A stretch of 63,974 nucleotides of DNA, filler included, from Collodictyon triciliatum (lineage: Eukaryota): assembly GCA_043381765.1 (NCBI GenBank). It is 10 parts of 10 records of this genome, joined end to end, with 100 filler letters (N's around TTAATTAATTAA, not from the genome) between each part and the next. Parts side by side here need not be neighbours in the genome. Positions count along the whole stretch, not along the records: positions 32,707 to 39,228 come from JBHJMP010004471.1; 9 more parts are not named here. One strand, 5' to 3'. The first letter of the stretch is position 1; the number at the start of each line of letters is the position of its first letter. The position numbers and the translations under genes are program-made. The notes under the pieces are model-generated. The model worked only from the letters and a program-made list of their open reading frames with translations, did no database searches and was not told where the DNA came from. Positions 3,001-62,742 of this stretch are shown here, in pieces.

Positions 3001-6000
3001 ATTATAAAGAATCAATTCATTATAGAAACTTTCCAAGTGGATTACAGGATAAACTATGGACTGAAAAACCCAATTCTACCAATATCTTTTCCACCTCCGA
3101 AGCACGGAGCCTCTTACATTTCCAATCAATCATCCTTACTAATAATCGGGGGATCTAGTGCAAGCAATTTAGTAGGAAATGATGTCTGGACGTGGGATAC
3201 AAGTAATACGAATTAAAATAAAATTAACTGTTATTAAAAAAAAAAGAATTGTTTAAATAAGAATCAAATCATAAAATAATGTGAATTTCGTCTTTACATT
3301 ATAATTTCTAAATCTTCTGTACCTTTTTTTTTATTTCGGAAATAAAGGTATCAAGACTTGGTCTGACACATCAATAAGACTGACACCTATTCACAGGACC
3401 GAACCTTCTTTTGCGCTATTAGATAATTCAACATTCATAATATTTGGAGGGGTAACTGAATACCTTGAAGAGTTACTTCTTAATGATTTATGGACTTTTA
3501 ATATCGGTAACAGCTATTTTTCGACTATTCTATTTTTACCTTCTGAAAAAAGAATTTAATAAAACATATGAAAACATGTGTAATCGAAAAATACATCTTA
3601 TAAACATAAAATTTATTGAAGATTGTATATTTGAAATTAGATAATCAAGAATGGAAATGTCTATTCATTGAATCTGAGCTAGGCCCCCCACCAAGATCAG
3701 GAGCTTTAATTTCAGTCTATTCAAATAAAGTTTATCTTATATCAGGGAGAACAAAACTAAGAGATTTTGCAGAGAAATTATGGATATTTGATTTAGGTAC
3801 CTTTTAAAAATGGGTTTATTTTTGTAATTAACCATCTTTTAATAATATTTCTAATCTTATAATAATGGAACCTTTAGAAAAAATGTTTTGGATCCAAGAA
3901 AATTACCATCAAGACTTGTCAATATATCAGAGGCCTTTCTATAGAGACGGTTTAAGTTTTATTACTATAGATCAAGATATTTTTATATGGGGCGGTAAAG
4001 TAAGTGATAATATTATTATTGTTATTTAATCACCTTTGTAGTCTTCTTTTTTTTTCATTCGACTTGTAGCTTGGAAGAAACCTTGATAAAATAAAATCTA
4101 CCCTATGCCGACATTTCACAAGTTTCTCTATTTAGATTATATCAGGAACAGACACAAAAGAGTTCTATTCCGCTGTAATGATTTTTGACATCAAGAACAG
4201 GGAACTAAAATCTTCAATGATTGGTGGAATCATCCCTGTAAATTCTTCTTTTATATCATTTTAAATTTTAAACTTGAATTACATTCCCTTGAATATAATC
4301 CAGGAAATAAAATCAATTGAATTAATAAATGATTATCTGATCTTCCAGAAAAAAAGACTTTATCATTCCATGTGTGAACTGGATGTTGATAATATATTAA
4401 TGATTGGAGGCGTCGATTTTTCTGGAAATGTTTTAGATGATTATTGGATCTATAACAAAAGTAAAAATAATTCCTTTTTTTTTCATTCAATCATCGGATT
4501 TTCTCTCATTTTCTCTGTGCATCAAACTGTACCAAAATGATTTTTTCCTTTATTCGATAAATTGCATTCAAACGATAAAACATAAGCTAATATATTTTTT
4601 TTAAAAGGACAACAAAAATGGAGCCAGTTATTTTTAAATGGAAGTGATTCAATGGCACCAATATCCCAACAAATCTGTTCATACTTTGGAGAATATAATA
4701 CGATATTCGGGATTGATCCTGTCACAGGAAAGTCTGTATCGAAGATGATTCAAATCGGTAATTATATTGATCAAATCGATAGTATGAAATCTTCTCTTCT
4801 CTCTTTATTTATACATATATAGTGGAACAATTCTAAGTTGTAAGACTATACAGTAGAAATTTAAAAAAACTAACCCTTCATCTAACTTGATTTAGATTTT
4901 ATGGTTGAATCCATGCTTATACAATCGAATAGAATTATTGGTTATGATTCCATTTCAAAGAATAACGGAGGTGTGCTTAATGACTGCATGGTTTTCTTTG
5001 GCGGGAAAAATGATTATTCCAGGACCAATCAAGTTGTCATCTACAAACCGGGTCCTATATAAAAACTATCCCAAAAAATGAAGAAAAAAAAAAACAACCC
5101 TTTTTTAATAAAATGGCATCCAAGAACCATTTTTATTGACCAAATTAAATTACATTAGGTTTTTGCTCTTCTGTCTTAGTATCTGAAATTAATAGCAACT
5201 TCATTGCTGAAGAGTTTGAAGATGGAAGCGGGATAGCTATGTACCTTACAAATACCAATTGTACCTGGATACTGGCAAATGCGACACATATAATAGTGGA
5301 AAAAAGGATACGAAAGCAAGACATGTGAATAATCCACTTTTCCTTTCAATTATGAATACTAAATTACTAAAAGTTGATAAATTATTAAGATAAATATTAT
5401 AGTTTAGAGATAAAGTCATTGGATACCGGCAATCAAGTATTTGATCTTGATAAAAACAATGAGAATGTATATCATTCTACAAAGGGATTCCAGATAAAAT
5501 TCATTACAGCTTCTGATGAACATAATCTTAAAAATGTCCCATGTCAAGGATGCGAAGGATTTTCCATAATACATGCCAGTAAATATTCCCTTTAATATAA
5601 ATAGACAACTCAAAACGATACATTTTGATAAAAAAAACTGATTTCTATTGATGAAAAATAGAATGCCCAAAAAATGGATATTTAGATGCAACAACTAGAT
5701 CATGTCTATGTAACAACCGATATAAATTAAATCAGGTTATTCAATAAAACAGATACGTGTAATAGTATAATTTAATAAAACATTTATAGTCACTTATGAT
5801 TTTTTTTCAATCTATATAGGATGTATGCGAGGAAGGTGGTTAACCAATTTTTTATGTTAAATGGAAACAAATAACAATTCATTAAAAAATCAATTGAAAT
5901 AATTCAATGAGCAACAACATTAAACTAACGATTTAATGTCCTTATCATAGATCAAGACATTGAAAGATTTCCCTACTTTTTGGTGATTGGGTGTGTTGTT

Positions 6001-6602: not shown

Positions 6603-6922
6603 AAAAGGAAAAAAGAGAAAAGAAAAAGAAAAAGAAAAAAAAGAAAAAGAAAAAGGAAAAAAGGAAAAAGAAAAAGGAAAAAAGGAAAAAGAAAAAGGAA
6701 AAAGGAAAAAGGAAAAAGGAAAAAGGAAAAAGGAAAAAGGAAAAAGGAAAAAGGAAAAAGGAAAAAGGAAAAAAAGGAAAAAAAGGAAAAAAGGAAAAAA
6801 GGAAAAAAGGAAAAAAGGAAAAAAGGAAAAAAGAAAAAGGAAAAAAAGAAAAAAAGGAAAAGGAAAAAAAGAAAAAGGAAAAAAAGGAAAAAGGAAAAAT
6901 AAAAGTAAAGGAAAAGGAAAAA
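6603..6922. repeat. Purine-rich simple repeat (GGAAAAA)n
   Basis: Direct reading; lies at a contig start. Confidence 0.9.
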
Positions 6923-12639: not shown

Positions 12640-13031
12640 TTTTTAATCTTCGCTCTTTCCTGTCCTTTTCATTCTAGTTTTTTATTCTTTTTTATTCTTT
12701 TTTATTTTTTCTTTTTTTATGCTTTTTATTCCTTTTTATTCCTTTTTATTCTTTTTATTCTTTTTTATTATTTTTTATTCTTTTTATTCTTTTTATTCTT
12801 TTTTATTTTTATTCTTTTTTTACACTTTTTAATCTTCGCTCTTTCCTGTCCTTTTCATTCTTGCTTTTTTATTCTTTTTTATTCTTTTTTATTCTTTTTT
12901 ATTTTTATTGTTTTTTTTATTCTTTTTATTCTTTTTTATTCTTTTTTATTCTTTTTTATTCTTTTTTATTCTTTTTTATTCTTTTTTATTCTTTTTATTC
13001 TTTTTATTCTTTTTTATTCTTTTTTATTCTT
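12640..13031. repeat. (TTTTTTATTC)n simple repeat with a duplicated head of about 35 nt
   Basis: TTTTTAATCTTCGCTCTTTCCTGTCCTTTTCATTCT occurs at about 12640 and again at about 12826. Confidence 0.85.
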
Positions 13032-13145
13032 NNNNNNNNNNNNNNNNNNNNNNNNNNNNNNNNNNNNNNNNNNNNTTAATTAATTAANNNNNNNNNNNNN
13101 NNNNNNNNNNNNNNNNNNNNNNNNNNNNNNNTTTTTTTATATAAT

Positions 13146-13270: not shown

Positions 13271-16200
13271 CTTTCCTATAGAAACTTGTATGCATTTATC
13301 GTCCGTTTTGTGGACTTCGGGGACATCAACACAAGGGGTCGATGTGGGATCATCTGATTTTGGCTCTGAATTGTGGGGTAATGAATCTCCAATCCTTGAA
13401 TCTTGATCTGAATCTGGGCCAACTGGATTCTCAGTAGCAAGAATATTCATGTCTTCTTCTAGTGTAGACGTATCAATGCTGACAGATCGAAAATCAGGTT
13501 TCGTAGGCAAGACCGAAATAACGTTGTTGGCAAGATTTCTCGTATCTCTCAACCTTGCTGTTAGGGAGAACATGTCTGTTGCGTTTGTGTCCAGTGTTTC
13601 CATATAATGAACTTGTTCCTCAACTGATAGTGATTGGTTCTTTTGAAAAAGAAAAAACAAGCGGGGGAGGGGAAGGGGAAATGGTATTATGATTCTTGAG
13701 CTTATTATCAAAAGAAAAATCACTGAATACTTTTAAATAAAACCAATCATGAAGAAAGTAGAATAAACTTTTATCGAGGAACATGGTATGAAGAAAGCCA
13801 AATTATCACAAGATAGGCTTTCGGTGGTGGGTCAAGGAGTCATCAAGACAGAAAAACTAAAGACTTACTTCAAATAGTAGCAAGCTCTCATGTAAACTCT
13901 TAATCGATCGCTGACATCCTTTTATTATTTCACTTACTGATTCCCAATCATTCTCATCCATAGATGAATCTTGTTGAGATTTCACTTTTTGTTTCAGTGA
14001 CTTAATTCTTTCTTCATCATTAAGGCTTCTAAATCAATTTACAGTGTATGTAATTATATATTCATTATCCCTCGTAAACTACAATGTCATTAACTAATTC
14101 ACCGATAATGGTTATAAATAATATCAATATATAATTGATATTAAGCACATATTGATATCGATAGATAAATAAATATATAAGCATTTAGTATGTAAAATCT
14201 TAAAATGATCAAATAAGATATCAAATGGCATGCAGGAGAGAGAGAGGAAAAAGGCAACATTAACAGATATACTGTAAATAAGATATTAAAAAAAAAAACT
14301 AACTGGTGTTTGGCTTGTAAGTTGTAAAAGGCCTTCAAATCGGCAAGGTCACGAGCACGCAAGGCTTCAGAGTCATCGGAATCACTTTCCTGTGAAGATT
14401 CGTAAATCACTTCCCAACCACCCACTCTCCCTCCAGAAGAAACATCGTCTTCTTCTTCTTCTTCCTCAAAATCATCCATCGCGTTATCTTCCATTTCCAG
14501 GGATGAAAGGGACTTGTTTTTGTCACCATCAAACTTTTCTCCGATGCCCGAAAAGGATCCCATGCTTGTGGTTCTTTTTCTAGATCTGCTTTCTCTCCTA
14601 GGCTGGTATTGACAAATGGAGAACATTTATGAGAAAATGTTTGAAGAGAAGGCTTCTTAAATGTTTTTTTTTTAAAAAAAAGCATATAGTTGTTTGTATG
14701 GAATTAATCATATATATACTCGAGAGGATGTGTCCCCGCCATTGAAATCCTGTGATGAAGAATTAATTTTGGTCCTAATAAAGAGGTTTTCAGGCATATA
14801 ATAAGATTGGTGCGTTTTTTTTTTTTGGATTTTTTTTTTGTTTTAGAAAAGAAGGATAGCAAAATGTGTTTTGAACATTCAACAAGAAACATCGGTTTTA
14901 TAAAAGCATTTGAATAAGATTGGTATTCTACTTAAGAACTTCAATTTCTCTCTTCAGTCGTTGGTAATCAGCGGTAAGGAGTGACCAAAGCTCACAGATA
15001 CGTGAATGGATGATCTCTAAAAGAATCCCCCGCTCAGAGCATGAATGGTAAACCTATAATTGCGTGTTTCTATTTCAATTTGCTATTATATATTCAGGGG
15101 TGGGCGTGGGCGTTATTCAGCATAAGGTTTTTTTTTTCTTTCCTTTACTTAATTCAAAACTTTAAAGCACAAGGTCCTTAGTCACATTCAAATTGTACAA
15201 CATACATGTCGGACGACCTCAGACATAATTAAGTCCCAAATTCTAAATTCTGGGAAAAGGAATGATTCCAAAACACCAGCAAATGTATGGGAATCTTTAT
15301 TTTCTGGACAGGAATCCCATAAACTGGATTGATTGTTTGTTTGTTTTTTTAAGTTATATTCATTTTCCATCAATTAACTATACTATGATATAATAATATT
15401 CAAAATAGAAAGAACTTTGAATAAAAATGAAGAGAATGAATATCTATAACACTAAGTAATACAAAAAACCAATCTATTGGGTGTGTTGCCTTGATAGCTT
15501 CTTCATTTGCTCTTTCTGAAATTCCCCTAAAATGACGTCAGCAGCGTGACAAAGATGAACAACTTCAGAGCGGGTGTTAGGAGAAGAGCTGGGGAAAAGG
15601 ACCGACTGCCAGACATGGTTTCTCCGGTCGTAAGTGACCTATCATGATAGAATATTATATATTCACAAATATCAGTTTTTTGATCAATCAAATATATAGA
15701 GATAACGTTATTAAAGAGTCACATATGATTTTGTCATTACAAAAATAAGGGAGACGAAGAAAAACCGAAGGCATCTATAAAATAACATTAAAGAACATAA
15801 ATGAATAAACCGACATCATCTGCCTGTGCTTCGTACACAACCGGTGTTGACTTATGTAAATGAAGTCTCTGTGGGATTCTTGACACGGGTGCGCCAATCT
15901 GATTTGCATTTCTATTTCAAGAAGATGACCGACATTTAGAAGAGAATGACAACGTGAAAGAGAAAAAGACAAAAAGAGAAAAGAAAAAGAAAAAGGAGAG
16001 AAGGAGAGAAGGAGAGAAGGAGAGAAGGAGAGAAGGAGAGAAGGAGAGAAGGAGAGAAGGAGAGAAGGAGAGAAGGAGAGAAGGAGAGAAGGAGAGAAGA
16101 AGAGAAAGAAAAAGGAGAGAAGAAGAGAAGGAGAGAAGAAGAGAAAGAAAAAGGAGAGAAGAAGAGAAAGAAAAAGGAGAAGAGAAGGAGAGAAGAGAGA

Positions 16201-19948: not shown

Positions 19949-20120
19949 TTTTCCCTTTCTTCGAATCAAAGTGCAGCGAGGTTATGCCATACATAGGGGC
20001 GAGATATGTGCGCATGGTAGAGAGCAAACGCGAGTAAGAGAAGACACTACTGTGGAGAGGCTAGCACTGGAAACTAATCAGTGATAGTGAGACTATGATC
20101 AAAGTTATTGGGGAGATATC
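19949..20120 (-). mobile_element. 5'-truncated, diverged copy of the retroposon 3' end
   Basis: CAAAGTGCAGCGAGGTTATGCCATACA...GGAGAGGCTAGCACTGGAAA...AATCAGTGATAG is shared with 49818-50077 and with the reverse complement of 62472-62742. No clear TSD. Confidence 0.85.
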
Positions 20121-25835: not shown

Positions 25836-26184
25836 TTGGTTAAGTGGGTCCTACGTTGGAATTACAATTGTAAGCAACATATTTCTGATATAATATATTT
25901 CTCTTAATTTTTTGGCCAAAAAAAAGGTCGAAATCCTTCGAGCAATCTCATCTGGTTCATATTTGCTCATGATGTACAATTTCTACTCTTTCATTTATGC
26001 TGTTTAGATTGACATGATATTTTTGGTAAGATTGAAGCATGCAAAAAAAAAAGAAAAAAAGAAAAAAAGAAAAAAAGAAAAAAANNNNNNNNNNNNNNNN
26101 NNNNNNNNNNNNNNNNNNNNNNNNNNNNTTAATTAATTAANNNNNNNNNNNNNNNNNNNNNNNNNNNNNNNNNNNNNNNNNNNN

Positions 26185-26453: not shown

Positions 26454-26618
26454 AATACCCGAAGGAAGATAAAAAAAATAGGAGGCAAATGAATACAAAC
26501 AATAAACCTTTTTCCTTTTGTCCTTATATTGTTAATGGATTAGATATATTTATTATAGCATTTTATTATAAACTTATATAAAGAAAGCGCAGTTGATGGG
26601 GACAACGCTGTGTCATCT

Positions 26619-26779
26619 AGAAAGTTTTTTTCCCTTTATTAGAGTCAAAGAACGTGGTGTCATACAGGCAATATAGCAAGGGCTTTGGGGCACAGCCGCA
26701 AGTCTCTGAATATCCGAACATAAGATTTGGTCGGGTTCATGGTCTGCGCCCCAGCTCGTGAGAAAGTTTTTTTCCCTTT
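26619..26779 (-). mobile_element. Short retroposon-like insertion of a sister family, bounded by 19-bp direct repeats
   Basis: AGAAAGTTTTTTTCCCTTT at 26619-26637 and 26761-26779. The minus-strand end CTTTGACTCTAATAAAGGG-A7 resembles the family end CTTTGAATCGAATAAAGG-An. Confidence 0.6.
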
Positions 26780-32168: not shown

Positions 32169-33019
32169 CCGCCTTTGGTGCGGATTCCAGAAGCGAAGGG
32201 CATTTCTCATCCTTTTTTTTTTCCTTCTCTTTTTCCTTTTTTTCCTTCTTTTTTTCTTTTTTTCTTTTTTTTCTTTTTTTCTTTTTTTCTTTTTTTCTTT
32301 TTTTCTTTTTTTAGACTTCCATGAAGTCTGCGGTTTGGCTGTCTGGCATTCGGTCAACTCTTGTTGTAGTTCACTGATGCGCTGCTACGCTGCTGCGCCG
32401 TCTGCTTATGGGCGCGCCTTATCACTCTTTTTTTTTCTTTCTGTTTTCTTGTTTGTTTTTTTGTTTGTTTTTTTGTTTTTTGTTTTTTGTTTTTTGTTTT
32501 TTGTTTTTTGTTTTTTTTTGTTTTTTGTTTTTTGTTTTTTGTTTTTTGTTTTTTGTTTTTTGTTTTTTGTTTTTTGTTTTTTGTTTTTTGTTTTTTGTTT
32601 TTTGTTNNNNNNNNNNNNNNNNNNNNNNNNNNNNNNNNNNNNNNNNNNNNTTAATTAATTAANNNNNNNNNNNNNNNNNNNNNNNNNNNNNNNNNNNNNN
32701 NNNNNNTTCTTTTTTTTTTTTTTTCTTTTTTTTCTTCTTTGGTTTTTTTTTTTTTTTTAGTTTTTTTTTATTCTATTCAAACATGCCTCATGTCATTGTC
32801 TTTGTTATAACAATGAATACTTGTGTTAGAGCCCATTCTAGGATAAAGAGCATAAAAATAAAAAAATTGATATTATATTATTCTATATAGTTAGAATAAT
32901 ATAATATCAAAAATAAAAAAAATATAAAATGGCTTTGATGTCTTAGCAGAAGGTGAAAAGGGGGTAGGGAAGCGCATGGCAAGAAGGTGGAACTTCTGGA
33001 ACGATGGAGACCTTACAAA

Positions 33020-35872
33020 TCAGCCAATTGCAGGGACAAGTGGCATCTTGATAACCGGTCGAACAGAACTTAAACATCGAATAGGGTCGTTGAAGTGCGC
33101 CGCGATTCTGCGCACTTGAATCATAGTCATATTGAACACACACGACCTCATCACCCCCTTGGAATCAAAGGACGCAAACAACAAGTCAATGTCACGATTA
33201 TTAAACGACTGCATCAGATTAGAATCTATGGCAATCCAAATAGCGAGTGAGTATACAACGGATAATATCATGTGGGCAAGCCTCCCATTGGAAAAGAACT
33301 TATTTAGGTGTATCTTTCCTGGCAATCTATCCAAGAAACCAACATTACGGTCGTATGAGATAAACGGACATGCGTCCATTCCCCCATCTCTCGCCCGGGC
33401 CCATTTCTCTGGTGGTGAGATGCTTTGGTCCAGCAATTTGCTTTTGATTATGCGTACAAGATTGTAGATACATACCAAAACCTGATAGTCGATATGCTTC
33501 TTTCTTTTAATTTTGTCAAGAATATCTAAAAGCTTGCCGTTGAACGAAGTGAATGAAAGTGGCTCTGCGTCTCCCAAAATCAAACGAAGACTCTGAATAT
33601 AAAGAGCAAGAATTCCTGGGAGGAGAAACCAAGAGCCAAAAAATGTGTAGTCAAATAAAAAGGCATAAAACACAGAGCTATTTACAATCGAGTACCAGTT
33701 CTCAAAGGAGTACATGCAATGAATAATTTCCGAAGAATTATAATGCAGCAGTTCGTATATAGAAGACATTAATCCAGCGACGTGTATAGAGCTGAATCCG
33801 TGACTCCAGAAGACCCCTCCTATTGTTTGCACGAGGAAGAGTATTCGTGATAAGAGCATGAAAAAACTAGCTATTCTATGACCTATCCTAGGCATTCTTA
33901 TAGGATTTCTTAATGCTTTTTTCATAATTGAAAGTAGCAAAGTTTCATCCTGAGAATTGAGTCTATTATCCTCTATAGGTGTCATAAGAAGGATTATTCT
34001 ACTGGGCGAATTACTCAGCCAAAGACCAGGAATAATGCTATGTGAATTCCTAAGCGAAGAAGATGTTGAGTTTCTTTCATATATAACACGCAAAGCGCTT
34101 GCGAAAGGGTAACGACCTTCAAACCTCTTATGGCTTTCTCTGTTATGGCTTTGTTGACTTGTACTTAAAGATGATGATTTGATTGATGTATAATCTCTAC
34201 TCGAACCGTGGTTTTTGTTTTTTTGTGTGGTGTTCGGTGTCTCACCATGCAGCTGATTTTCGATATCAGCATACTGATTTAACGCTATTTTGTCATATCT
34301 ATTTTGTTTGGCCTCTATTTTATCTATTTCATCCTGTGAAAACTGAATAATGTTCGTCAATCTTAAGCGTTCAGAATCATTAGGATTATCTTCTAAGCCT
34401 CTTCCTGCATATTGATTCTCTCTCCTCCCCTGTTCCTGGACATCCTCGCCACCACCAGGGGGTGATGGTGACCTTTGAACGACCTGCCTTTCGATTTCAC
34501 CAAATACGTCATCCCCCAAAAAATGTATCCACCCTTTGGTTAAAGGAATCTTCATGACCTGTCTTGTTATGCATTGTAGCTTTCCTGGTCTATGGGCGTA
34601 TGTGATTGCTTTTTTCCAACAAAAGGCGAGGATATTCAGAGTAGAGGCTCGGAAAAGTGCATCTAGACCTACACGGCTACTCATAACATGAATATACCGA
34701 ATTTCGTGTTTGCTTGGCAACGAACTTAACATGATGACATACAAATATGTGGACGCAGTAATTCCGAAGAATAGTGCTAATCTTGATTCTATACTCAGTA
34801 ATAGCAGTAATCGTATTCTCCTGAGTAATCGCTCCGCAAGGAATTTTGGAGCTTGGTACCAGCCCACCATTTTAAGATATGCTATCTTACACGAGTAGAA
34901 GGAGGATGACATAGTCCGAAACCGATCAAAGTCTCCGTCATTCAATGAAGATAGGGATTGCGATTCAGACATATACCTCTCCCGGGCAGGGGACGAGGAC
35001 ATAAAGAAGCGAGGCCGAAAATAGCTCATTCCACCCGAAGAGGACGATTTCTTAACTTTCGAGTGGTTTGTGCCGCTGCCTATTATATTACTCTGTTCTC
35101 CTTCAACCTCCCCGACTTCATTTTGCAGCTGGCTGAGGGTCATAGATGAGTGTCTTTGTGAGTTCGCCTTTCTGATAAAGGATATCAAGATAGATTGCGC
35201 ATAGGAAAAACTGACCGGCCATGCATCAAGGAAGATAAATGCAAAGTAATATACGATGAAAGATACGGAACCGGTTATTGTGTAAAATTCCCAGCCTAAT
35301 ATATCGGCACACGATAAAATCGAAACATTTATATTCAACAAGAGAAAGATGCTATCAAAATCTAACATGTTCATTGCAGCGATTTCGTATTGATATTGAG
35401 TGATACAGAGTATTGGATAGCTGAGTCCAAGGAATGACAGAAACAGATACGGTATATAGAGACTAGGTCTTCGATCCGTCACCATGTAAAGGGTAAGACA
35501 GAGGTGTGCTACCATGCAAAGTATAAAAAGAACCCCGAATTTTCGAAAGTAATATTTTGATATTAGATATGTAGCACTAGGAGACAATAGCACGCTTCCA
35601 ATTGTCTTTGAGGCATTAACGGGGTAATATATATCCGTGTCCGTGTAAAAAACCCAGCGGCCTTGGAAGAGATGAAGCATAGAATTGTCTGACCGTGATG
35701 ATTCTTGCCTTGCCACCGACTCTGCATAGACAGACTCATCTGTCTGGTGGATGCCTATGTGATGTCTGTTTAAATGAAGGTCATACTCATTGTCTGAGAC
35801 AGAGACAGATACAGAGACAGCATTTTCCTCGCTTCGAGTGCTAGCTCCGCGATCCATCGATCTTCCTGCCAT
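33020..35872 (-). CDS. Uncharacterised multi-pass membrane protein (950-aa single exon) built from two homologous halves
   Basis: Long uninterrupted ORF with two hydrophobic clusters separated by a polar linker. An acceptor-like TAG sits just before the ATG, so upstream exons are possible. Confidence 0.85.
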   Translation of the reverse strand: MAGRSMDRGASTRSEENAVSVSVSVSDNEYDLHLNRHHIGIHQTDESVYAESVARQESSRSDNSMLHLFQGRWVFYTDTDIYYPVNASKTIGSVLLSPSATYLISKYYFRKFGVLFILCMVAHLCLTLYMVTDRRPSLYIPYLFLSFLGLSYPILCITQYQYEIAAMNMLDFDSIFLLLNINVSILSCADILGWEFYTITGSVSFIVYYFAFIFLDAWPVSFSYAQSILISFIRKANSQRHSSMTLSQLQNEVGEVEGEQSNIIGSGTNHSKVKKSSSSGGMSYFRPRFFMSSSPARERYMSESQSLSSLNDGDFDRFRTMSSSFYSCKIAYLKMVGWYQAPKFLAERLLRRIRLLLLLSIESRLALFFGITASTYLYVIMLSSLPSKHEIRYIHVMSSRVGLDALFRASTLNILAFCWKKAITYAHRPGKLQCITRQVMKIPLTKGWIHFLGDDVFGEIERQVVQRSPSPPGGGEDVQEQGRRENQYAGRGLEDNPNDSERLRLTNIIQFSQDEIDKIEAKQNRYDKIALNQYADIENQLHGETPNTTQKNKNHGSSRDYTSIKSSSLSTSQQSHNRESHKRFEGRYPFASALRVIYERNSTSSSLRNSHSIIPGLWLSNSPSRIILLMTPIEDNRLNSQDETLLLSIMKKALRNPIRMPRIGHRIASFFMLLSRILFLVQTIGGVFWSHGFSSIHVAGLMSSIYELLHYNSSEIIHCMYSFENWYSIVNSSVFYAFLFDYTFFGSWFLLPGILALYIQSLRLILGDAEPLSFTSFNGKLLDILDKIKRKKHIDYQVLVCIYNLVRIIKSKLLDQSISPPEKWARARDGGMDACPFISYDRNVGFLDRLPGKIHLNKFFSNGRLAHMILSVVYSLAIWIAIDSNLMQSFNNRDIDLLFASFDSKGVMRSCVFNMTMIQVRRIAAHFNDPIRCLSSVRPVIKMPLVPAIG

Positions 35873-36059
35873 TCCTAATATAGAAGAGCGAAGAATAATG
35901 AAGACATCTGATGAGTTCTCTATTTTACTCTTTTCCTTTTCCTTTTCCTTTTCCTTTTCAACTTTTAATTTTATTTGTTTCTTTTCTGTTTGAACATTTG
36001 TCTCCTAGAAAAGATCACATCTTTGCTTTATAAAAATATAGTTCACGGCAAGAAAAATT

Positions 36060-36136
36060 AAAGGCGTCAAACAGATTTTTTTTTTCCCTTCATTCGATTC
36101 AAAGTGTAGCGAGGTTATGAAAGGCGTCAAACAGAT
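36060..36136 (-). mobile_element. 43-nt retroposon insertion with perfect 17-bp TSD
   Basis: AAAGGCGTCAAACAGAT at 36060-36076 and 36120-36136 flank T9-CCCTTCATTCGATTCAAAGTGTAGCGAGGTTATG. Confidence 0.92.
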
Positions 36137-37387
36137 AACATGTGCCACAGGGTTTAGACTTGAGAAACAGACGAAATTATGACCCAAAAGAAGGATAGTG
36201 AATCGAAGAGATAATAACAAAAATAATTGAAAAGATTCCTTCTATTTGCGAAATATTGGGGTCCCTCGGCTCGGTACGCTGGGATTCGATATTATAAGAA
36301 GAAAAATACAAGACAATCAAAAGAATGAAAATAATGAAAAATGAAGGGATTACACAAATAAAAGGAATTGAAATAACAAAAGACCAAAAGGCCAAAAGGC
36401 CAAAAGAAGAAAAAGAAGAAAAAGAAGAAAAAGAAGAAAAAGACCAAAAGAAAAGAAGAAAAGAAGAAAAGAAGAAAAAGACCAAAAGACCAAAAGAAAA
36501 GAAGAAAAAGAAGAAAAAGAAGAAAAAGAAGAAAAAGAAGAAAAAAACCAAAAGACCAAAAGAAAAGAAGAAAAGAAGAAAAGAAGAAAAGAAGAAAAGA
36601 AGAAAAAGACCAAAAGACCAAAAGACCAAAAGACCAAAAGACCAAAAGACCAAAAGGCCAAAAGAAAAGAAGGAAAAGAAGAAAAAGGATAATATCAACC
36701 GAAGTAAGAAAGTGGGGTGAAGTGCCATCCCATAGTCTAAACGCAAATGCGCGACCGAGATCGTCAGAGCCCCTGCCAGTCAGACAAGGGGTGATATCAG
36801 TTACGGGTGCGAGCATGCTCTGATCTCTGCTTCGCGGGTGGTGCATCACACTTTTGATGTTGCCAGTTGCGATTTACCAACAGGGTTATTCCGAGGGCAC
36901 CTTTGGCGCCAACAAGCGACAGACAGAAATTTCAAATTGGGACGTCTAAACAGAAAAAATGAATTTTTCATGTGCTTTGGATGATTTGAGCGAACCTTCA
37001 GCTTTCTGTTCATCAAACACTAATGGAGGAATCTTGGACCTTATGGTGGATTGACCGCAATAATAAGACTATTTATTAATTATCTGCGTACTATACAGAA
37101 TTAGGGAGGTATCATAGATTTTCATACACATGTTTATGATTCAATTCATAAATTCCACATATGAATACCAACTCACCTTCCTGGTTTTCCAACGAAGCAA
37201 GGAGACTCTCATAATTTTCAAAGCAGAGGACGATCGATCAGGCCATCGGCGCGTTGGTGGGGCGCGGCGTCGCGCAAAAATCAACCATGTGTAAAGCCAT
37301 CTCGTTTAATCATGAAGGAGTTGTGTTCCAGTTTTGTTGCTGTCTCTTTCAAAGAATTAAGAAAATACCGGTTTCTGTGCGTTCTTT

Positions 37388-37457
37388 ATGTTTCCGCCAA
37401 AGTAGCACTTTGAGTCGAATAAAGGATTAGAAAAAAAAACAAAATGTTTCCACAAGT
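37388..37457 (+). mobile_element. Ultra-short retroposon copy with decayed TSD
   Basis: GCACTTTGAGTCGAATAAAGGA plus an A-rich tail, flanked by ATGTTTCCGCCAAAGT and ATGTTTCCACAAGT. Confidence 0.7.
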
Positions 37458-37548
37458 CTTTTCCCCTGTATATTACGAGAGCTGTGCACCGTCGCCTGGT
37501 TCCACACGGCTATGTTTTTGTTTTCAATAATTGCAAACATATTGAAAC

Positions 37549-38562
37549 ATGTCTATCCAGAGACAGGTCAACATTCAAGGTATGAACCATATCGTCGAGC
37601 AACTCAAGAGCGGGGAGCTTCAACAAGCTTTGCTGTCCCAAATGAAACCATGGGGATCCTTCTTTAACGCATCCATGATTCGACCGCCTCCCAATGGAGA
37701 ATGGATGACTAGGATCCAGCTCAACGTTTTGCACTTCCGAGTCAATTACGGTGTCATTAGTTTTGTCCTTCTTCTGCTCTTCGTGTAAGATGCATACATT
37801 CGCGATATACTAAGGAAACAAAGGCGAAAAAAAAGGGAAAAGAAAAAAGAAAAAGAAAACAAAAGGAAGAAGAAATATATATTCATGGCCAAGCCTATTG
37901 TCTTGCTTAATTTCTAATAAGAAGGCCAAAAATTATTGTCAAAATTCTAATTGCGATGATACTAATTTTCCTCCATCTTTCGAAATTAATACAAACACAC
38001 GCACCTATTACATCAAGTCGTTAATGAACTATCTGAATTACAAAACCATTTTTTTTTTACAAGAAACATTTGGTTTGGTGTGTGTTGATATTGAATTGAA
38101 ATGTAACATACTGATAGTTCCAAATTTAACCAAAGGATATCAAATCCCTCTTTCTTGATCGGTCTCTGCCTCATCGGAGGTGCGTGGTATGGATTTGTTG
38201 ACCAGAAGCAACCGATCACCATCGCAGGGCGCACTTTAAATGAAAACGAGCGACTAATGGCGTTTGGAATATGTATTACTTGGTTTTGATTTTGTCATGA
38301 CAAAATGGACACATACACAAAAATCCGATGAATATACTATTCTTATTGTTGATTGAATACCTTTCAGTGTAATCTAATTCTATCACAACACACAGCCGTA
38401 GTGATTACAGTTTGGTTATTTGGAGTTGGGACGAGTATTTTCTTCATCACTGGCCTGATTCTTAGCTTCGTTATTGTTCACGCAGCCATGCTAGAATCTA
38501 TGGATAGTTCAGCAGGCTTTGAGAAAGCTTATGGCGATAACTTCGGACGGTCTAAAGTCTAA
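37549..38562 (+). CDS. PRA1: Prenylated Rab acceptor (PRA1/Yip3 family), 3 exons
   Basis: KPWGSFF..RP...RIQLNVLHFRVNY, hydrophobic pairs, and VIVHAAM motif. Confidence 0.9.
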
Positions 38563-38735
38563 AATCGTGCGGACAATAAATCCAGCGAGAGAAAATCATA
38601 ATAATAAAAACACACATATATCGCTCATATCGTGACAAAATTATTTTGAATAAAAATAGTGGAGAATGAATTTAAGCTGAAATTTTGGCTGGTCAGCATT
38701 GATGGGATAGAGCAAAAGGCTTCTGTGTCATCAAG

Positions 38736-39228
38736 TTGAAAAAAGGAAACAGCTCCGTCATCCTGCAACAAGTCACATTCCAAAAGGATGGGAGCCTCGC
38801 ACCGTCGAAAAATGCACCGATATTTCACTCCTCGAATGCAACCCCAACCACAGCCGTCCTGAGCAACAAAGGAGAATGGCGCTCACGACGTCCCATCTCA
38901 TACGGAGCGCCGTCGCCATTTTTCTTTCGCCTGAAGAACCAAAGGCGGTCCATTACGCCCGACTCTCCGCAATTCTCGATGGCCATGGCGCACTCCAAGC
39001 TGTTTCGATATAAAATCATCAGTCCGAATCCCTACAAACCGGAGATGAGTTATTGGGCCGAAACTATAGGCATTATAGACCCGCCGATAGTCAAAAGCTG
39101 GAAGCAAGCCCGATTACCTCAGTTATTGCCGAAACACCGCGCCCTACTTCTCAATATCTCCAACAGAGAGCTGTGGATAGGTGCGCGCGTAGTCCATGCA
39201 GCAACGACCTCCCCAGAATGCACCATGT
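38736..39228 (+). mobile_element. L1/Tx1-like LINE ORF2 fragment, cut by the contig end
   Basis: About 39095-39228 is nearly identical to 60152-60285 (LLPKHRALLLNISNRELWIGARVVHAATTSPEC), which leads into a CCHC zf-RVT motif. The 5' limit is uncertain. Confidence 0.7.
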
Positions 39229-39589
39229 NNNNNNNNNNNNNNNNNNNNNNNNNNNNNNNNNNNNNNNNNNNNTTAATTAATTAANNNNNNNNNNNNNNNN
39301 NNNNNNNNNNNNNNNNNNNNNNNNNNNNCAAGAAAACAAGAAAACAAGAAAACAAGAAAACAAGAAAACAAGAAAACAAGAAAACAAGAAAACAAGAAAA
39401 CAAGAAAACAAGAAAACAAGAAAAAAATCAAAAAAATCAAAAAAATCAAAAAAATCAAAAAAAAAAGAAGCAAAAACCAGAAACCAAAAAGAAAAAAGCA
39501 AAAGACTAAAGTGCTAGCGCGAACGCGTTTTTCTTTCCAAAAAGATTTTTTTTTTAAAAAAAGAGTCTGACATATACGAAACAGTACTC

Positions 39590-45290: not shown

Positions 45291-46375
45291 CAAGTTAGTG
45301 TTAATACACAAATAAATATGGAAATATGAATAAATAAAATGTACAAAGAGGACACTCAAAGAAAAAGGAGGCAAGGATACATGGGAAGACGTGATATTGT
45401 ATCAGGGGCAAAGATGACATATTGCACAGGCATTCTTTCAGTTTATTTAGCATGCATAAAAAATTACATGTCAGATATATAATGGCCTGCCGGAGTTTGT
45501 CGAAGGAATGAAGAATAGGAGACTTCAGCCATTCATTGATAATTATCTATATTGAAAACATGATGTCGATACAAATTCATAAGAGCTAATTAACTGTGAG
45601 AAGCATGCCAAAATCTTCACACATTGTACAAGTTGAAAGGAATAGGAAAAAAAAGAAAAAAAAGAAAAAAAAGAAAAAAAAGAAAAAAAAGAAAAAAAAG
45701 AAAAAAAAGAAAAAAAAGAAAAAAAAGAAAAAAAAGAAAAAAAGAAANNNNNNNNNNNNNNNNNNNNNNNNNNNNNNNNNNNNNNNNNNNNTTAATTAAT
45801 TAANNNNNNNNNNNNNNNNNNNNNNNNNNNNNNNNNNNNNNNNNNNNAAGTTGAATTGTGTTAAAAAAAAAAAAAAAGGATATTTGGCTTATCTTCAGCA
45901 ATTGGTGGCTGTATCAAGTTTCTGTCATTCGGCTGCGAACCCGCTCGGATCTCTACTCGCTGTTTTGGATCGGACGAGACTTGCTTAGGATATCTCTCTG
46001 GATTGCAGTCGATTAACCCATACGAAGGCGTAAGAGTTTCAAATTAGCTTTGGCCTGTGAGGAACAGTTCCAATGTTATTTCTAATTATGGAATATATCC
46101 TTCATGTGTTATGATAGCATCCTTTCTCCATCAAAATGTTTCTTTTGCACAAATTGATTAGCTGTTACAATATACTATTTGTAATATGAGAAACATAGTG
46201 AGCAAAAACAAAGTGAGTCCGTAATGTTTTCGTATTGTAGCGATCTGGCTTCCAATCAACAGGACATGAATCTGAATCTCAATCGAATGTGAATTTGTGT
46301 CGTCGTTCAAAGCCGCTGAAGAGTCCATTGTTGCTCTCCTTTCACCGCCCCCTTCGTACTACTAGACTCCGAACC

Positions 46376-49427: not shown

Positions 49428-49799
49428 GTATATTCTCGCTATCACTAAATAACAACCACATGAAATGATTTAGCTATCCTAAAATTACGTACACGTGATA
49501 CTATATTTCATCTCAATAAATTGAAACAAACGATTTGCTGAAATTTAATCATAGCTACGTAGTTATATATATATATTGATCTTTCCCCTATTTATTTAAA
49601 TAAAGAAAAAAATGGACATCGCTATAACGTGCCCAAGATTATCCCAATGCAACATGACGGGCTCCAAATATTGACCTAGCAGATACAAAAGCTGATACGA
49701 AGTTAAATACGAATTTCATAGTATCTTTCACACACGGGCACAATAGCCAACAGATCTGTTATATAGGCTATTATAAACTTTAATCGTATTAAGGAAGAA

Positions 49800-50095
49800 A
49801 AAAATATATGCCATCATTTTTTTCCTTTATTCGATTCAAAGTGCAGCGAGGTTATGCCATACAAAGGGGCGGGATGGGAGCGCATGGTAGAGAGCAAACA
49901 CGAGTAGGAGAAGACACTACCGTGGAGAGGCTAGCACTGGAAAGAAATCAGTGATAGCGAGCTGGTCAGGCGGGCGTCCCAACTGGTTGATTGGTTGCGT
50001 GGGTAGCAGGGGTTGGATATGCTGTGGGAGATATATCACGACGCATTCCTACATCTCTCTTCGCTTGCGGTCAGAGTAAAAATATATGCCATCAT
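49800..50095 (-). mobile_element. 260-nt 5'-truncated retroposon with perfect 18-bp TSD
   Basis: AAAAATATATGCCATCAT at 49800-49817 and 50078-50095; AATAAA plus oligo-A on the minus strand; closely matches 62472-62742. Confidence 0.95.
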
Positions 50096-50710
50096 AAACT
50101 AAATAAACTAAAAAAAAACACACACACAAAAAACCCTCATTTCTATCGCAGAATCGAACCGCCTAAATTTTCATATTTTCTCGTATTGCCTGCATCGGCA
50201 AATAATGGGCGGGTTCAGAAGCCACGAAACAAATGAAGCCGAACGCTGCACACAAATCAAAAGCAACCACACAACAAGAATGCTCCAGCCAGATCGCGCA
50301 AGAATGCCGACAAAAAGACAGAAGAAGAAGAAGAAAAAAATAATCCCCTCCCACTTTGTCTTGGGAGTCGCATCGGAACCATCCAGCGTCCGAGGATTCA
50401 TCAATCTCCTGCGCCTTTCTTTTCTTTTCCTCGTCCATTTGCGTTGTCCCGCTACACTGAATCAAACTTATTCCTTTTCCATTCCCCACCAAAATTCTCA
50501 CCCTGCGGCGTTTGACCCCATAAGTAATGAATCAGACACACCCAAAACCTGTGACTAATCCTTCTGAATAAGACAAATATAGAAAGAAAACTCTGCTCTC
50601 TCGCGACATGAAGGTGGCTCAAAAGTCCATGGCATTGTCCTTCCTCAAATAACGATAACAACAATTATGATAATGTTGATAATGATAATGATAATGATAA
50701 TGATAATGAT

Positions 50711-50733
50711 TTTTTTTTCCTTTATTCGATTCA
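50711..50733 (-). mobile_element. Retroposon stub of about 23 nt inside an (ATGATA)n microsatellite
   Basis: TTTTTTTTCCTTTATTCGATTCA exactly matches the family end; ATGATAATGATAATGAT lies on both sides. Confidence 0.8.
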
Positions 50734-51118
50734 ATGATAATGATAATGATAATAATAATGATAATAATAATGATAATAATAATGATAATAATAATGATAA
50801 TAATAATGATAATAATAATAATAATAATAATAATAATANNNNNNNNNNNNNNNNTAATAATAATGATAAAGATAGTGATGAATAAATCAATACGTGATAA
50901 ACCGAGGCAGGAGAAGTATCCAGTGTATACACTTTTCTGGAGCTACAAAACTCAAATCATGAAGCACAGAATCGCCCAGGTTCTTTGTCTTTTTTTTTCT
51001 TCACACTTTTTCCCCCACCTCGACTCCCTTGCCCTACAGAACAAAGCACTTTTGCCAGCTTCGATCTCTGCCACATCGACCAGACACTGGGCTCAACCCA
51101 CACAAAGTGAGGCAAAGT

Positions 51119-52362: not shown

Positions 52363-52420
<58 letters not shown>

Positions 52421-52618
52421 AATAAAAAAAAAAAAAAAAACAATAAAAAACAATAAAAAACAATAAAAAACAATAAAAAACAATAAAAAAACAATAAAAA
52501 ACAATAAAAAAACAAAACAAAAAAACAAAACAAAAAAACAAAACAAAAAAACAAAACAAAAACACAAAAACAAAAGAAAAACAAAGATATACCCCATAAA
52601 AACTCATAGCGTTCGGGA

Positions 52619-59799: not shown

Positions 59800-60545
59800 A
59801 TTTCTGTGAGCGAATTATGTTTGGCTTTCAGGATGGACTTATGTTTCCAGGAAACATTGCGTGGAAGCCACCGTCATATCCACTCAAGTATCTTGTCATC
59901 ATATTCGGTCCACAATCGGATAGCAAATGGACAAGCCTGGTTGAGGACATCAAGTCGAAAATATCAGTGTGGAGCAACTTTCATCTTTCGGATGTCGGGG
60001 AAAGTAAGGTTGTGGAACCAAGTGATGGTGTCGACCCTTATCTACAACATGAAAGGCACTTTGCTGAATCTCCAGAGGCTGGAAGAGCTGGAAGACATCT
60101 GCCGCAACTTCATCACTACGAGTAATCAAAAATAAAAAAAAAAAATAAAAAAACTGAAAGCAAGTCCGAACATATCTCAGCTACTCCCGAAACATCACGC
60201 CCTACTTCTCAATATCTCCAACAGAGAGCTGTGGATAGGTGCGCGTGTAGTCCATGCAGCAACGACCTCTCCAGAATGCAACATGTGCCATAGTGGAGAT
60301 GACTATCGAACACACATTTGTGAAGTGCTCTCTGGCTCAAAAAATGACAGAATCTACCCACAAGATGCTCTCTCAGCTTGATTATGCTCCCAACCGACTC
60401 AGCGCGTCTGACATCCTGTTTGGCCCACAATATCAAATGACCCACAACTCTAGAGTACTCTGGACAGTCACAAGGGGACATATGCTGTGGTTCTTATGGA
60501 GTGTGCGTGCATTCTCTCGCTCCAATGCTTCGTCCAAACGAGAGG
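59800..60545 (+). mobile_element. Decayed L1/Tx1-clade LINE ORF2 fragment (RT thumb region plus CCHC zinc knuckle) with an internal deletion
   Basis: PLKYLVIIFG..WTSLVEDIKSKISVWSNFHLSDVG, then after a frameshift NQVMVSTLIYNM; PECNMCH, then after a frameshift TIEHTFVKC; MLWFLWSVR. An A-rich patch at 60126-60152 replaces the intervening part. Confidence 0.8.
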
Positions 60546-60812
60546 CAGAAGCATACAGATTTACGGATGCATAAACCATATCTGACTGTGTTTTCCTCAT
60601 CCGCCCGTTGCGTTTATGTTTCCTTGTGGGCGCACCTCCACCCGAACGCACAGTGTCAGTTACCTGTTTCAGGCTTCCTGCAAGGCGAGTCACTTTCTCC
60701 ACTCGAGTGTTACGGATACCACGCATTTCCATGGATTCGGAGCTAATCCTTATTCTTCTCCTGATATTTCCTTTATTTTCGTGCGTCCTGCTGTCCTTCT
60801 TCCGCACCTCGA

Positions 60813-62029
60813 TTAAGAAGAGGAGGGCTGGCTTTGTGCAGCCTTCTTTTCGCGCTCTTTTTGTTCCTTCTCCGCTTCGATCTCAGCGACATACTGGTCG
60901 ACCTAAAGATATAGCCATGGCATATGTCATGATTAAGAGTCAAATTCACAGAAGTAAAAAGAAGGAAGTGAATACATTAATACGAAAAAATAAGTAGAAG
61001 GAAAGAAGGAGGGGATAATATTATTACACATAGGCGCAGAGATTACATTCCACGGGAACAAAAGAGAGTGGGATGACTTTCGTCATTGATGATTAGATTA
61101 CCTTCTCATCCTCGAGAATGATGAGAGGCTGGTTGAACCGGACGATGCCAACTTCAATATTTTTGCTAGCAGACTCGACAACCTATTTAATTTTGATACT
61201 GTTATGATTAAAATAATTTAAATAAATAAGTAATCACACGTGATGTGAAAGGATATGGCTAGTGGCTGCTTTGTTGAGTTAATAGACATTTATTAACTAA
61301 AGTTATGATATGGTCACCTCCATGAGCGCCTGAATGGCAAGTTTGATTGTGCTTTCATCTCCTTCATCGGTATAGTTCTTTTCAAGGAATTCTCGGACAT
61401 TCTTCGCACTTCTGCCGATGACATTTGCCTAAAAAGCAAACAAATAAAATAAAAATAAAGAACAATGGAAGAGATCAATAATTATGCCAGCATCAGATTT
61501 CTTGTCATTTTTGTGTGTCTGTGTATGCTAATTGGTTACCTATTTCATTTTTTCTGAGCAAAAAGACAAATAAGAAAATGAATAACGAGCATATTACAGA
61601 GCTTTGAATCAAATAAAGGAAAAATAAATATATTACAGAGAAAAAAATATAGCTTAATGGGGGAGTATAGAAGACCTTCCAGGCAGAGTATGTACCAGCA
61701 GGATCGGTTTGGTACAGACGTGGAGTTCCGTCAGAATCGAAGCCCGCGATCAGGGTCGAAATACCAAGAGGCCGGACACCTCCACTCTGGGTGTATTTCT
61801 ACACGAAGAAGAGAGCAATGAGTATACTCTTAAAAGACTGATACATGATTATATGTCGCTTCTATATTGTCTTGCTGTTTTCTTTTGCATCAGTAAGCTT
61901 GTTATATTAAGACTGTCTTAATTCATCTCCCATATTACCTGCTGAACACCAGCCAGGTAGCGAGTAAGATAGTCGATGGATGGAGCATCTTCAAAACTCA
62001 GACGGTGGCTTTGGCATTCCAAACGAGCC
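60813..62029 (-). CDS. PSMA7: 20S proteasome subunit alpha-4, 5'-truncated
   Basis: Exons [14 protein letters not shown]..|[54 protein letters not shown]..|[11 protein letters not shown].. Confidence 0.96.
61591..61640 (+). mobile_element. 28-nt retroposon stub with perfect 11-bp TSD in a PSMA7 intron
   Basis: ATATTACAGAG at 61591-61601 and 61630-61640 flank CTTTGAATCAAATAAAGGAAAAATAAAT. Confidence 0.85.
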
Positions 62030-62471: not shown

Positions 62472-62742
62472 CATTCTTCGCTACTCTGACCGCAAGCGAA
62501 GAGAGATGTGGGAATGTGTCGTAAGATATCTCCCACAGCATATCCAACCCCTGCTACCTACGCAACCAATCAACCAGTTGGGACGCCCACCTGACCAGCT
62601 CGCTATCACTGATTTATTTCCAGTGCTAGCCTCTCCACAGTAGTGTCTTCTCCTACTCGCGTTTGCTCTCTATCATGCGCTCCCATCCCGACCCTTTGTA
62701 TGGCATAACCTCGCTACACTTTGAATCGGATAAAGGAAAAAA
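62472..62742 (+). mobile_element. Longest copy of the retroposon 3' end (cut by the contig start): ORF tail, short 3' UTR, A-tail
   Basis: Open frame ILRYSDRKRREMWECVVRYLPQHIQPLLPTQPINQLGRPPDQLAITDLFPVLASPQ*, then about 95 nt ending CTTTGAATCGGATAAAGGAAAAAA. Confidence 0.88.

Follow-up and report, generated by a model that had tools for sequence, protein, structure and literature searches.

The insertions described here have their closest known counterparts in L1-type poly(A) LINEs, in the extreme truncations produced by the human L1 machinery and in SINEs with LINE-derived tails. According to the cited part of PMC13009371, human L1 insertions have a median length of 390 nt (somatic solo) or 1277 nt (germline solo). 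The shortest Alu insertion listed in the cited part of PMC4859970 is one of 6 nt, with a 40-nt tail, in SERPINC1, and a poly(T)-only insertion in NF1 is read as a severely truncated retroelement in that of PMC3219598. A limited literature search returned no paper on genome-wide LINE copies below 50 nt in protists, though such papers may exist.

The DNA analysed here, called the window, is a stretch of 63,974 nt including filler. It is made of ten pieces of about 6.4 kb each, except one of 10 kb and one of 1.5 kb. The spacers between them have the form N43-TTAATTAATTAA-N43, which bears out the earlier note on this DNA in treating the pieces as separate contigs. The window has 36% G+C and is interrupted by four internal gaps filled with N, 16 to 623 bases long. 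Most of the piece ends consist of A-rich or T-rich microsatellites or homopolymers (for example, 6603-6900, 12950-13032 and 26040-26085, and further 32540-32607, 39329-39410, 45660-45748 and 52363-52440). Its genes include long WD40 and ephrin-receptor-like ORFs, a TCP-1 chaperonin, a 2-oxoacid dehydrogenase E2, Dus, EMP70 and a proteasome subunit. In runs X1 and X2, contigs pass over two GT..AG-bounded stretches, indicating that the host is a eukaryote with introns.

One 3′ end recurs in this window in ten copies, all of which finish in ...AATAAAGG followed by A5-A14 or an A-rich tail. Nine of these sites, on seven pieces, had been named in the earlier note and are all present; the tenth, 26625-26650, is our addition. 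Most are very short and are called micro copies below. It is very probable, in our judgment, that the short insertions are extremely 5′-truncated copies of one poly(A) LINE, made by endonuclease-dependent target-primed reverse transcription. The copies, together with the other LINE pieces and the target-site duplications (TSDs) of the copy at 36077, are as follows.

36060-36076, minus strand: TSD copy downstream of the A-tail, 17 bp, identical to 36120-36136.
36077-36119, minus strand: micro copy of 43 nt, with 33-34 nt of the LINE 3′UTR end, an extra G and A9-10; its AATAAA is mutated to AATGAA.
36120-36136, minus strand: TSD copy at the 5′ junction, with no microhomology to the LINE base upstream of the truncation point.
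37405-37443, plus strand: micro copy with 20-21 nt of the LINE end and the tail ATTAGA9CAAA; 8-bp TSD ATGTTTCC at 37388-37395 and 37444-37451; nine unrelated bases (37396-37404) at the 5′ junction.
61602-61629, plus strand: micro copy of 28 nt, with 18 nt of the LINE end and a 10-nt A-rich tail; 11-bp TSD ATATTACAGAG at 61591-61601 and 61630-61640.
50710-50734, minus strand: micro copy of 25 nt, with 16 nt of the LINE end (100% identical) and A9.
4541-4558, minus strand: shortest candidate, 18 nt, with 12 nt of the LINE end and A6.
26625-26650, minus strand: diverged micro copy, with 18 nt (2 mismatches in the last 12 nt) and GA7.
15128-15161, minus strand: diverged micro copy, with about 21 nt and a 14-nt A-rich tail.
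19949-20091, minus strand: 5′-truncated copy of 143 nt, with 138 nt of LINE and a short tail, 90% identical.
49818-50077, minus strand: 5′-truncated copy of 260 nt, with about 158 nt of the ORF2 end, the stop codon, the 96-nt 3′UTR and the A-tail; its LINE part is 254 nt; 18-bp TSD at 49800-49817 and 50078-50095.
62472-62742, plus strand: LINE 3′ end of at least 265 nt, cut by the piece start.
38699-39229, plus strand: LINE ORF2 C-terminal fragment, cut by the piece end inside the zinc knuckle; loose contig ends place its 5′ truncation at 38699, and the whole copy is estimated at about 1.1 kb (~1130 nt).
About 60172-60570, plus strand: internal LINE ORF2 fragment with the zf-RVT region and a frame shift, 3′ part missing.

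The sizes claimed earlier for the copies at 36077 (43 nt, 17-bp TSD), 61602 (28 nt, 11-bp TSD) and 49818 (260 nt, 18-bp TSD) are confirmed. The positions of the other sites also hold, but 4541-4558 spans 18 nt rather than 17, and 50710-50734 spans 25 nt rather than 23. Two further micro copies are doubtful, each having no clear TSD: 49775-49800 (plus strand), head-to-head with the TSD of the 49818 copy, and 32761-32781 (minus strand), at a piece start before a long A-rich tract.

The recurrence of the 3′ end is far above expectation. The 17-base motif TTTGAATCGAATAAAGG, searched with up to 3 mismatches as the earlier note had proposed, gave 10 matches in the window, the scope of this search, against 0.89 expected, and none of 100 shuffles reached 10. 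The last 12 nt (up to 2 mismatches) followed by an A-tail gave 8 matches, where 300 permuted-motif controls had a mean of 0.55 and a maximum of 6. Suffixes of 9-12 nt are each found 3 times directly before AAAA, with at most 0.025 expected. Conversely, among 136 A-runs with ordinary upstream sequence, the LINE end is the sole 12-mer that recurs in front of a run. The site at 4541 is put forward as a candidate copy from these motif statistics. A de novo scan for TSD-flanked poly(A) micro-insertions found 4 pairs of proper polarity against 4 of improper polarity, with only 36060 convincing; it missed known copies and is too crude for use. Separately, we considered whether the A-rich microsatellites might be expanded LINE tails, and rejected this since only 3 of 59 A-rich tracts of at least 30 nt adjoin the LINE 3′ end.

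TSDs were assessed in an anchored test, in which the upstream repeat ends no more than 10 nt from the start of homology and the downstream repeat starts at the end of the tail. The null was obtained from random pseudo-insertions (4000 or 1500) in non-repetitive window DNA, because unfiltered random sites gave a null inflated by microsatellites. The copy at 36077 has a TSD of 17 exact bases, while none of 4000 null sites reached 13. The anchored test gave 17-18 exact bases for the 49818 copy, 11 exact for 61602 (null 0.0005), 8 exact for 37405 (null 0.0015) and 10 with 1 mismatch for 15128 (null 0.004). The 26625 copy has a TSD of 13 nt with 2 mismatches, starting 8 nt past its tail (null 1/1500); the eight bases in between, at 26617-26624, read CTTTCTAG on the minus strand. 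An (ATCATT)n microsatellite is cleanly broken by the 50710 copy, whose TSD is uninformative for that reason. No TSD was found in the anchored test for 4541 or 19949. In total, five of the seven micro copies and the 260-nt copy have TSDs that are rare at random sites (null at most 0.004).

Five of the six informative TSDs, including that of the 260-nt copy, start with AT, which points to one integration machinery and is the one indirect sign of a nick-site preference of its endonuclease. The 5′ junctions at 36077, 61602, 26625 and 49818 have 0-1 nt of microhomology. Endonuclease-independent insertion was considered and rejected as a general explanation, since every micro copy keeps the 3′ end and the tail and five of seven have a TSD; for 4541 and 19949 it is possible. 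Empty alleles, which the earlier note proposed to look for, did not appear among the contigs of runs X1-X4 aligned to 33000-39200: no contig bridges 36060-36136, and the sole covered site, 37405, is occupied in one contig (X1).

The identity of the repeat is revealed by a metagenome contig, L005, which has the LINE 3′ end and aligns to all the copies from one common 3′ end (for the 36077 copy, with 95% identity over 44 nt, E 4e-14). The first 11 bases of the 62472 copy, which lie upstream of where the 49818 copy begins, match L005. Since both the 62472 copy and L005 continue further upstream, the unit is longer than 260 nt, and the 49818 copy, whose length had been taken as that of the long form, is itself truncated. 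An open frame in L005, at least 105 aa long, enters the repeat and stops 96 nt before the tail. The peptide of this frame has 8 protein matches among 1.84 billion representatives. The Pfam domain zf-RVT (PF13966) is above the curated cutoff in four of the eight (P0003, P0004, P0007 and P0009) and in a further relative, P0010, which is the longest (345 aa) and has zf-RVT as its sole domain. In tblastn searches, these proteins detected two more ORF2 pieces in the window, at 38979-39227 and 60172-60562; P0004 is 98% identical to 39057-39227 and 84% identical to 60284-60544. The window ORF at 38703-39227, which is cut before the second Cys, has no Pfam match. Taken together, the frame in L005 and its zf-RVT relatives imply that the repeat is the ORF2 C-terminus plus the ~96-nt 3′UTR of a poly(A) LINE, and the separate "micro-retroposon" of the earlier note is thereby given up. 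Judged by their sequence, the micro copies are the 3′ tip of this LINE, all of them pure 3′UTR. In contigs of X1 and X2, the LINE is left at 39112 for the sequence that opens the 49818 copy; this junction resembles that of a LINE variant from which about 435 internal nt, including the zinc knuckle, were deleted.

A common 3′ end with poly(A), variable 5′ truncation, TSDs and zf-RVT place the element among the poly(A)/L1-like LINEs, where the putative label "L1-like" draws on zf-RVT and the poly(A) tail only. Neither a reverse transcriptase nor an endonuclease domain turned up in the 88 window ORFs, and a search for longer relatives of P0003 returned none. A C-terminal profile had no match among solved structures, human L1 ORF2p included (best E = 2). 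The 20-base pattern of the 3′ end had 12 loci in metagenome contigs, of which one is real (L005) and 11 are chance matches; 10 loci in prokaryote genome contigs, none of them real; and no locus in viral contigs. As far as these searches show, the family would be an unannotated one of a kind already known, namely extreme LINE truncation.

Two of the copies lie near gene features. The 37405 copy is about 150 nt upstream of the splice acceptor at 37558/37559, inside one unspliced X1 contig, and the 61602 copy lies antisense beside the proteasome-subunit exon. For the earlier claim of insertion into introns, these two positions are indirect support. At the same acceptor (region 37538-37560), an X1 contig has 21 bases joined at the AG; they are absent from the entire window, and may represent either a spliced leader or an exon that lies further upstream on another contig. 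An X1 contig also stops near 38620 (38603-38625), where 5 bases at odds with the window are followed by 23 A; an AATAAA lies about 12 nt before this end. The end is probably a host poly(A) site, which hints that the organism recognises AATAAA as a signal. An uninterrupted frame of 994 codons (33020-36004, minus strand), with no homologue among 8000 scored candidates and no Pfam family, has the 36077 micro copy in its own orientation no more than about 130 nt upstream.

Measured against L005, the LINE-derived lengths are 12, 16, 18, 20-21 (starting at reference position 397 or 396, depending on the alignment), 33, 138, 254 and at least 265 nt, with 18 nt (26625) and about 21 nt (15128) for the diverged copies. 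Seven of the ten copies that retain the 3′ end, two of these seven being diverged, keep only 12-33 nt of LINE. At other loci in the public runs X1-X4, copies of 27 nt (leaving at 36113) and 31 nt (leaving at 36117) are seen among the matches listed, each in a single contig that goes over into unrelated sequence, and the contigs sharing the LINE 3′ end mostly go on as LINE body at 36119 in the matches listed for the four runs. If the stop rate is fitted to the micro copies, whose mean is 19.9 nt, a fraction of 0.001 would reach 138 nt and 3e-6 would reach 254 nt. No single constant stop rate accounts for micro and long copies alike, and this misfit points to two phases, an early abort-prone step and then processive copying. 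The very low processivity of the reverse transcriptase proposed in the earlier note is therefore doubtful, given this misfit and the copies of 138, 254, at least 265 and ~1130 nt; the cited part of PMC4859970 likewise describes non-LTR reverse transcriptases as highly processive in vitro and indicates host factors instead.

The earlier note regarded an ordinary LINE length distribution as one outcome that would undo its reading. A single exponential over all ten copies gives P = 0.013 for at least seven of ten at 33 nt or less, but this value, like the other length statistics, rests on 10 copies in 61.6 kb of a repeat-broken assembly. It may well be, although we lean against it, that the LINE has an ordinary length distribution and that micro copies predominate only as an artefact of fragmentation, in an assembly whose contigs cannot accommodate long near-identical repeats. 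LINE sequence lies at two piece ends (39229 and 62472) and microsatellites at many others, and the four internal gaps could hide repeats; the count, moreover, covers only 10 copies. Long copies are under-counted because the assembly breaks at repeats and microsatellites and has internal gaps, and the high share of micro copies is probably inflated by such breaks at long repeats. Against a pure artefact, the 143- and 260-nt copies, at 90-97% identity, were assembled inside contigs, the single exponential fits poorly, and the human L1 medians in the cited part of PMC13009371 are 390 and 1277 nt. A preference for 12-33 nt is out of the ordinary if a complete assembly upholds it.

The signature of target-primed reverse transcription recognised earlier (one 3′ end in common, A-tails, 5′ ends that vary, and TSDs 8-18 bp long) stands. 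From these direct observations, and from the LINE identity, we infer the enzymatic steps. The target would be nicked by the endonuclease of the element, and the poly(A) end of the LINE RNA would be primed at the nick. Synthesis of cDNA would then halt after only 12-33 nt of the 96-nt 3′UTR, the short cDNA would be joined across the staggered break with 0-1 nt of microhomology or a few extra bases, and gap repair would create the TSD of 8-18 bp. The abort-prone early step of integration could reflect release of the reverse transcriptase, host interference or an RNA template that was already shortened, and events that pass this step would be copied for hundreds of bases. RNA structure at the 3′ end was considered as a cause of stalling and rejected, the predicted folding of the last 108 nt being no better than that of shuffles (z = 0.55). 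Only tentatively do we suggest a distinct, failure-prone first phase of about 35 nt, in which most events would end at 12-33 nt plus poly(A) with normal TSDs and from which a minority would escape.

It is conceivable, if on the whole unlikely, that the template itself was short: degradation or cleavage of LINE RNA would have left polyadenylated 3′ fragments, and target-primed reverse transcription would have run to the 5′ end of these. The blunt 5′ junctions with 0-1 nt of microhomology at 36077, 61602, 26625 and 49818 are consistent with this, and so are the nine unrelated bases at the 37405 junction, as run-off of the reverse transcriptase at a template end might give. The clustering of truncation points at 12-21 nt and the high processivity ascribed to non-LTR reverse transcriptases in the cited part of PMC4859970 also favour it. 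On the other side, its products would be identical to those of aborted synthesis, and the sequence of the copies fits both equally.

Chance matches to an A/T-rich AATAAA motif, or deletion remnants of longer copies, are very improbable sources of the short insertions. A genome of 36% G+C full of A-rich tracts offers room for such matches, and those at 4541 and 32765 are without TSD, but the motif counts are far above both shuffled and permuted controls. Moreover, TSDs abut the short inserts, and deletions would need to end exactly there in several independent copies. For the five micro copies with TSDs, and for the microsatellite-interrupting 50710 copy, this explanation is refuted; it applies, if anywhere, to 4541, 32761-32781 and 49775-49800. 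Least credible of all is a distinct tiny retroposon or SINE, whose short source RNA would share only its tail with the LINE and be mobilised in trans: the micro copies do have the LINE 3′ end, like SINEs with LINE-derived tails, and 5′ ends clustered at 16-21 nt could suggest a unit, but these ends vary (12, 16, 18, 18, 21, ~21 and 33 nt, with 27 and 31 nt in other runs), the window has no tRNA gene or Rfam family, the copies have no common upstream head sequence, and the supposed 260-nt unit, shown by L005 to continue upstream and to be coding, is refuted, and with it largely the SINE identity, which we rejected.

With the insertions recognised as truncated LINE tips, the supposed new class is removed, and the point of remaining specialist interest is how the lengths are distributed: seven of ten copies do not exceed 33 nt, and others range from 138 to ~1130 nt. 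If this distribution is true, a density of about one micro copy per 8 kb would mean tens of thousands of them genome-wide, each with an AATAAA signal and invisible to standard repeat annotation. They would form a natural record of the step from initiation to elongation in target-primed reverse transcription, or of host defence acting on it. Confirmation in a long-read genome would provide many natural products of aborted target-primed reverse transcription, in which early failure (release of the reverse transcriptase, host factors or a shortened template) could be studied. It would also reveal a sizeable layer of retroposon-derived DNA and scattered AATAAA signals, some beside or inside genes, below the detection limit of repeat finders.

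Among the known systems, SINEs with LINE-derived tails are similar in being short poly(A) retroposons with the 3′ end of a partner LINE. In contrast to them, the copies here have no promoter-bearing head, fixed 5′ end, tRNA or Rfam match, and the repeat continues into a coding LINE. In the extreme human truncations driven by L1, too, a few bases plus poly(A) were inserted by LINE machinery, as far as the cited parts of PMC4859970 and PMC3219598 go. Those, however, are rare single disease cases, whereas here such insertions make up seven of the ten 3′-end copies in 61.6 kb, a share that may carry assembly bias. L1-type poly(A) LINEs differ in that their human medians are hundreds of nt (cited part of PMC13009371) while most of the copies counted here are 12-33 nt, and in that the TSDs here start with AT and not with an A-run; the comparison extends to the ORF2 C-terminus and the 3′UTR, from which the element is known without its reverse transcriptase and endonuclease domains. 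Both have a 3′ end with AATAAA and an A-tail, graded 5′ truncation, TSDs of 8-18 bp, 5′ junctions that are blunt or contain filler, and a zf-RVT zinc knuckle at the C-terminus of ORF2.
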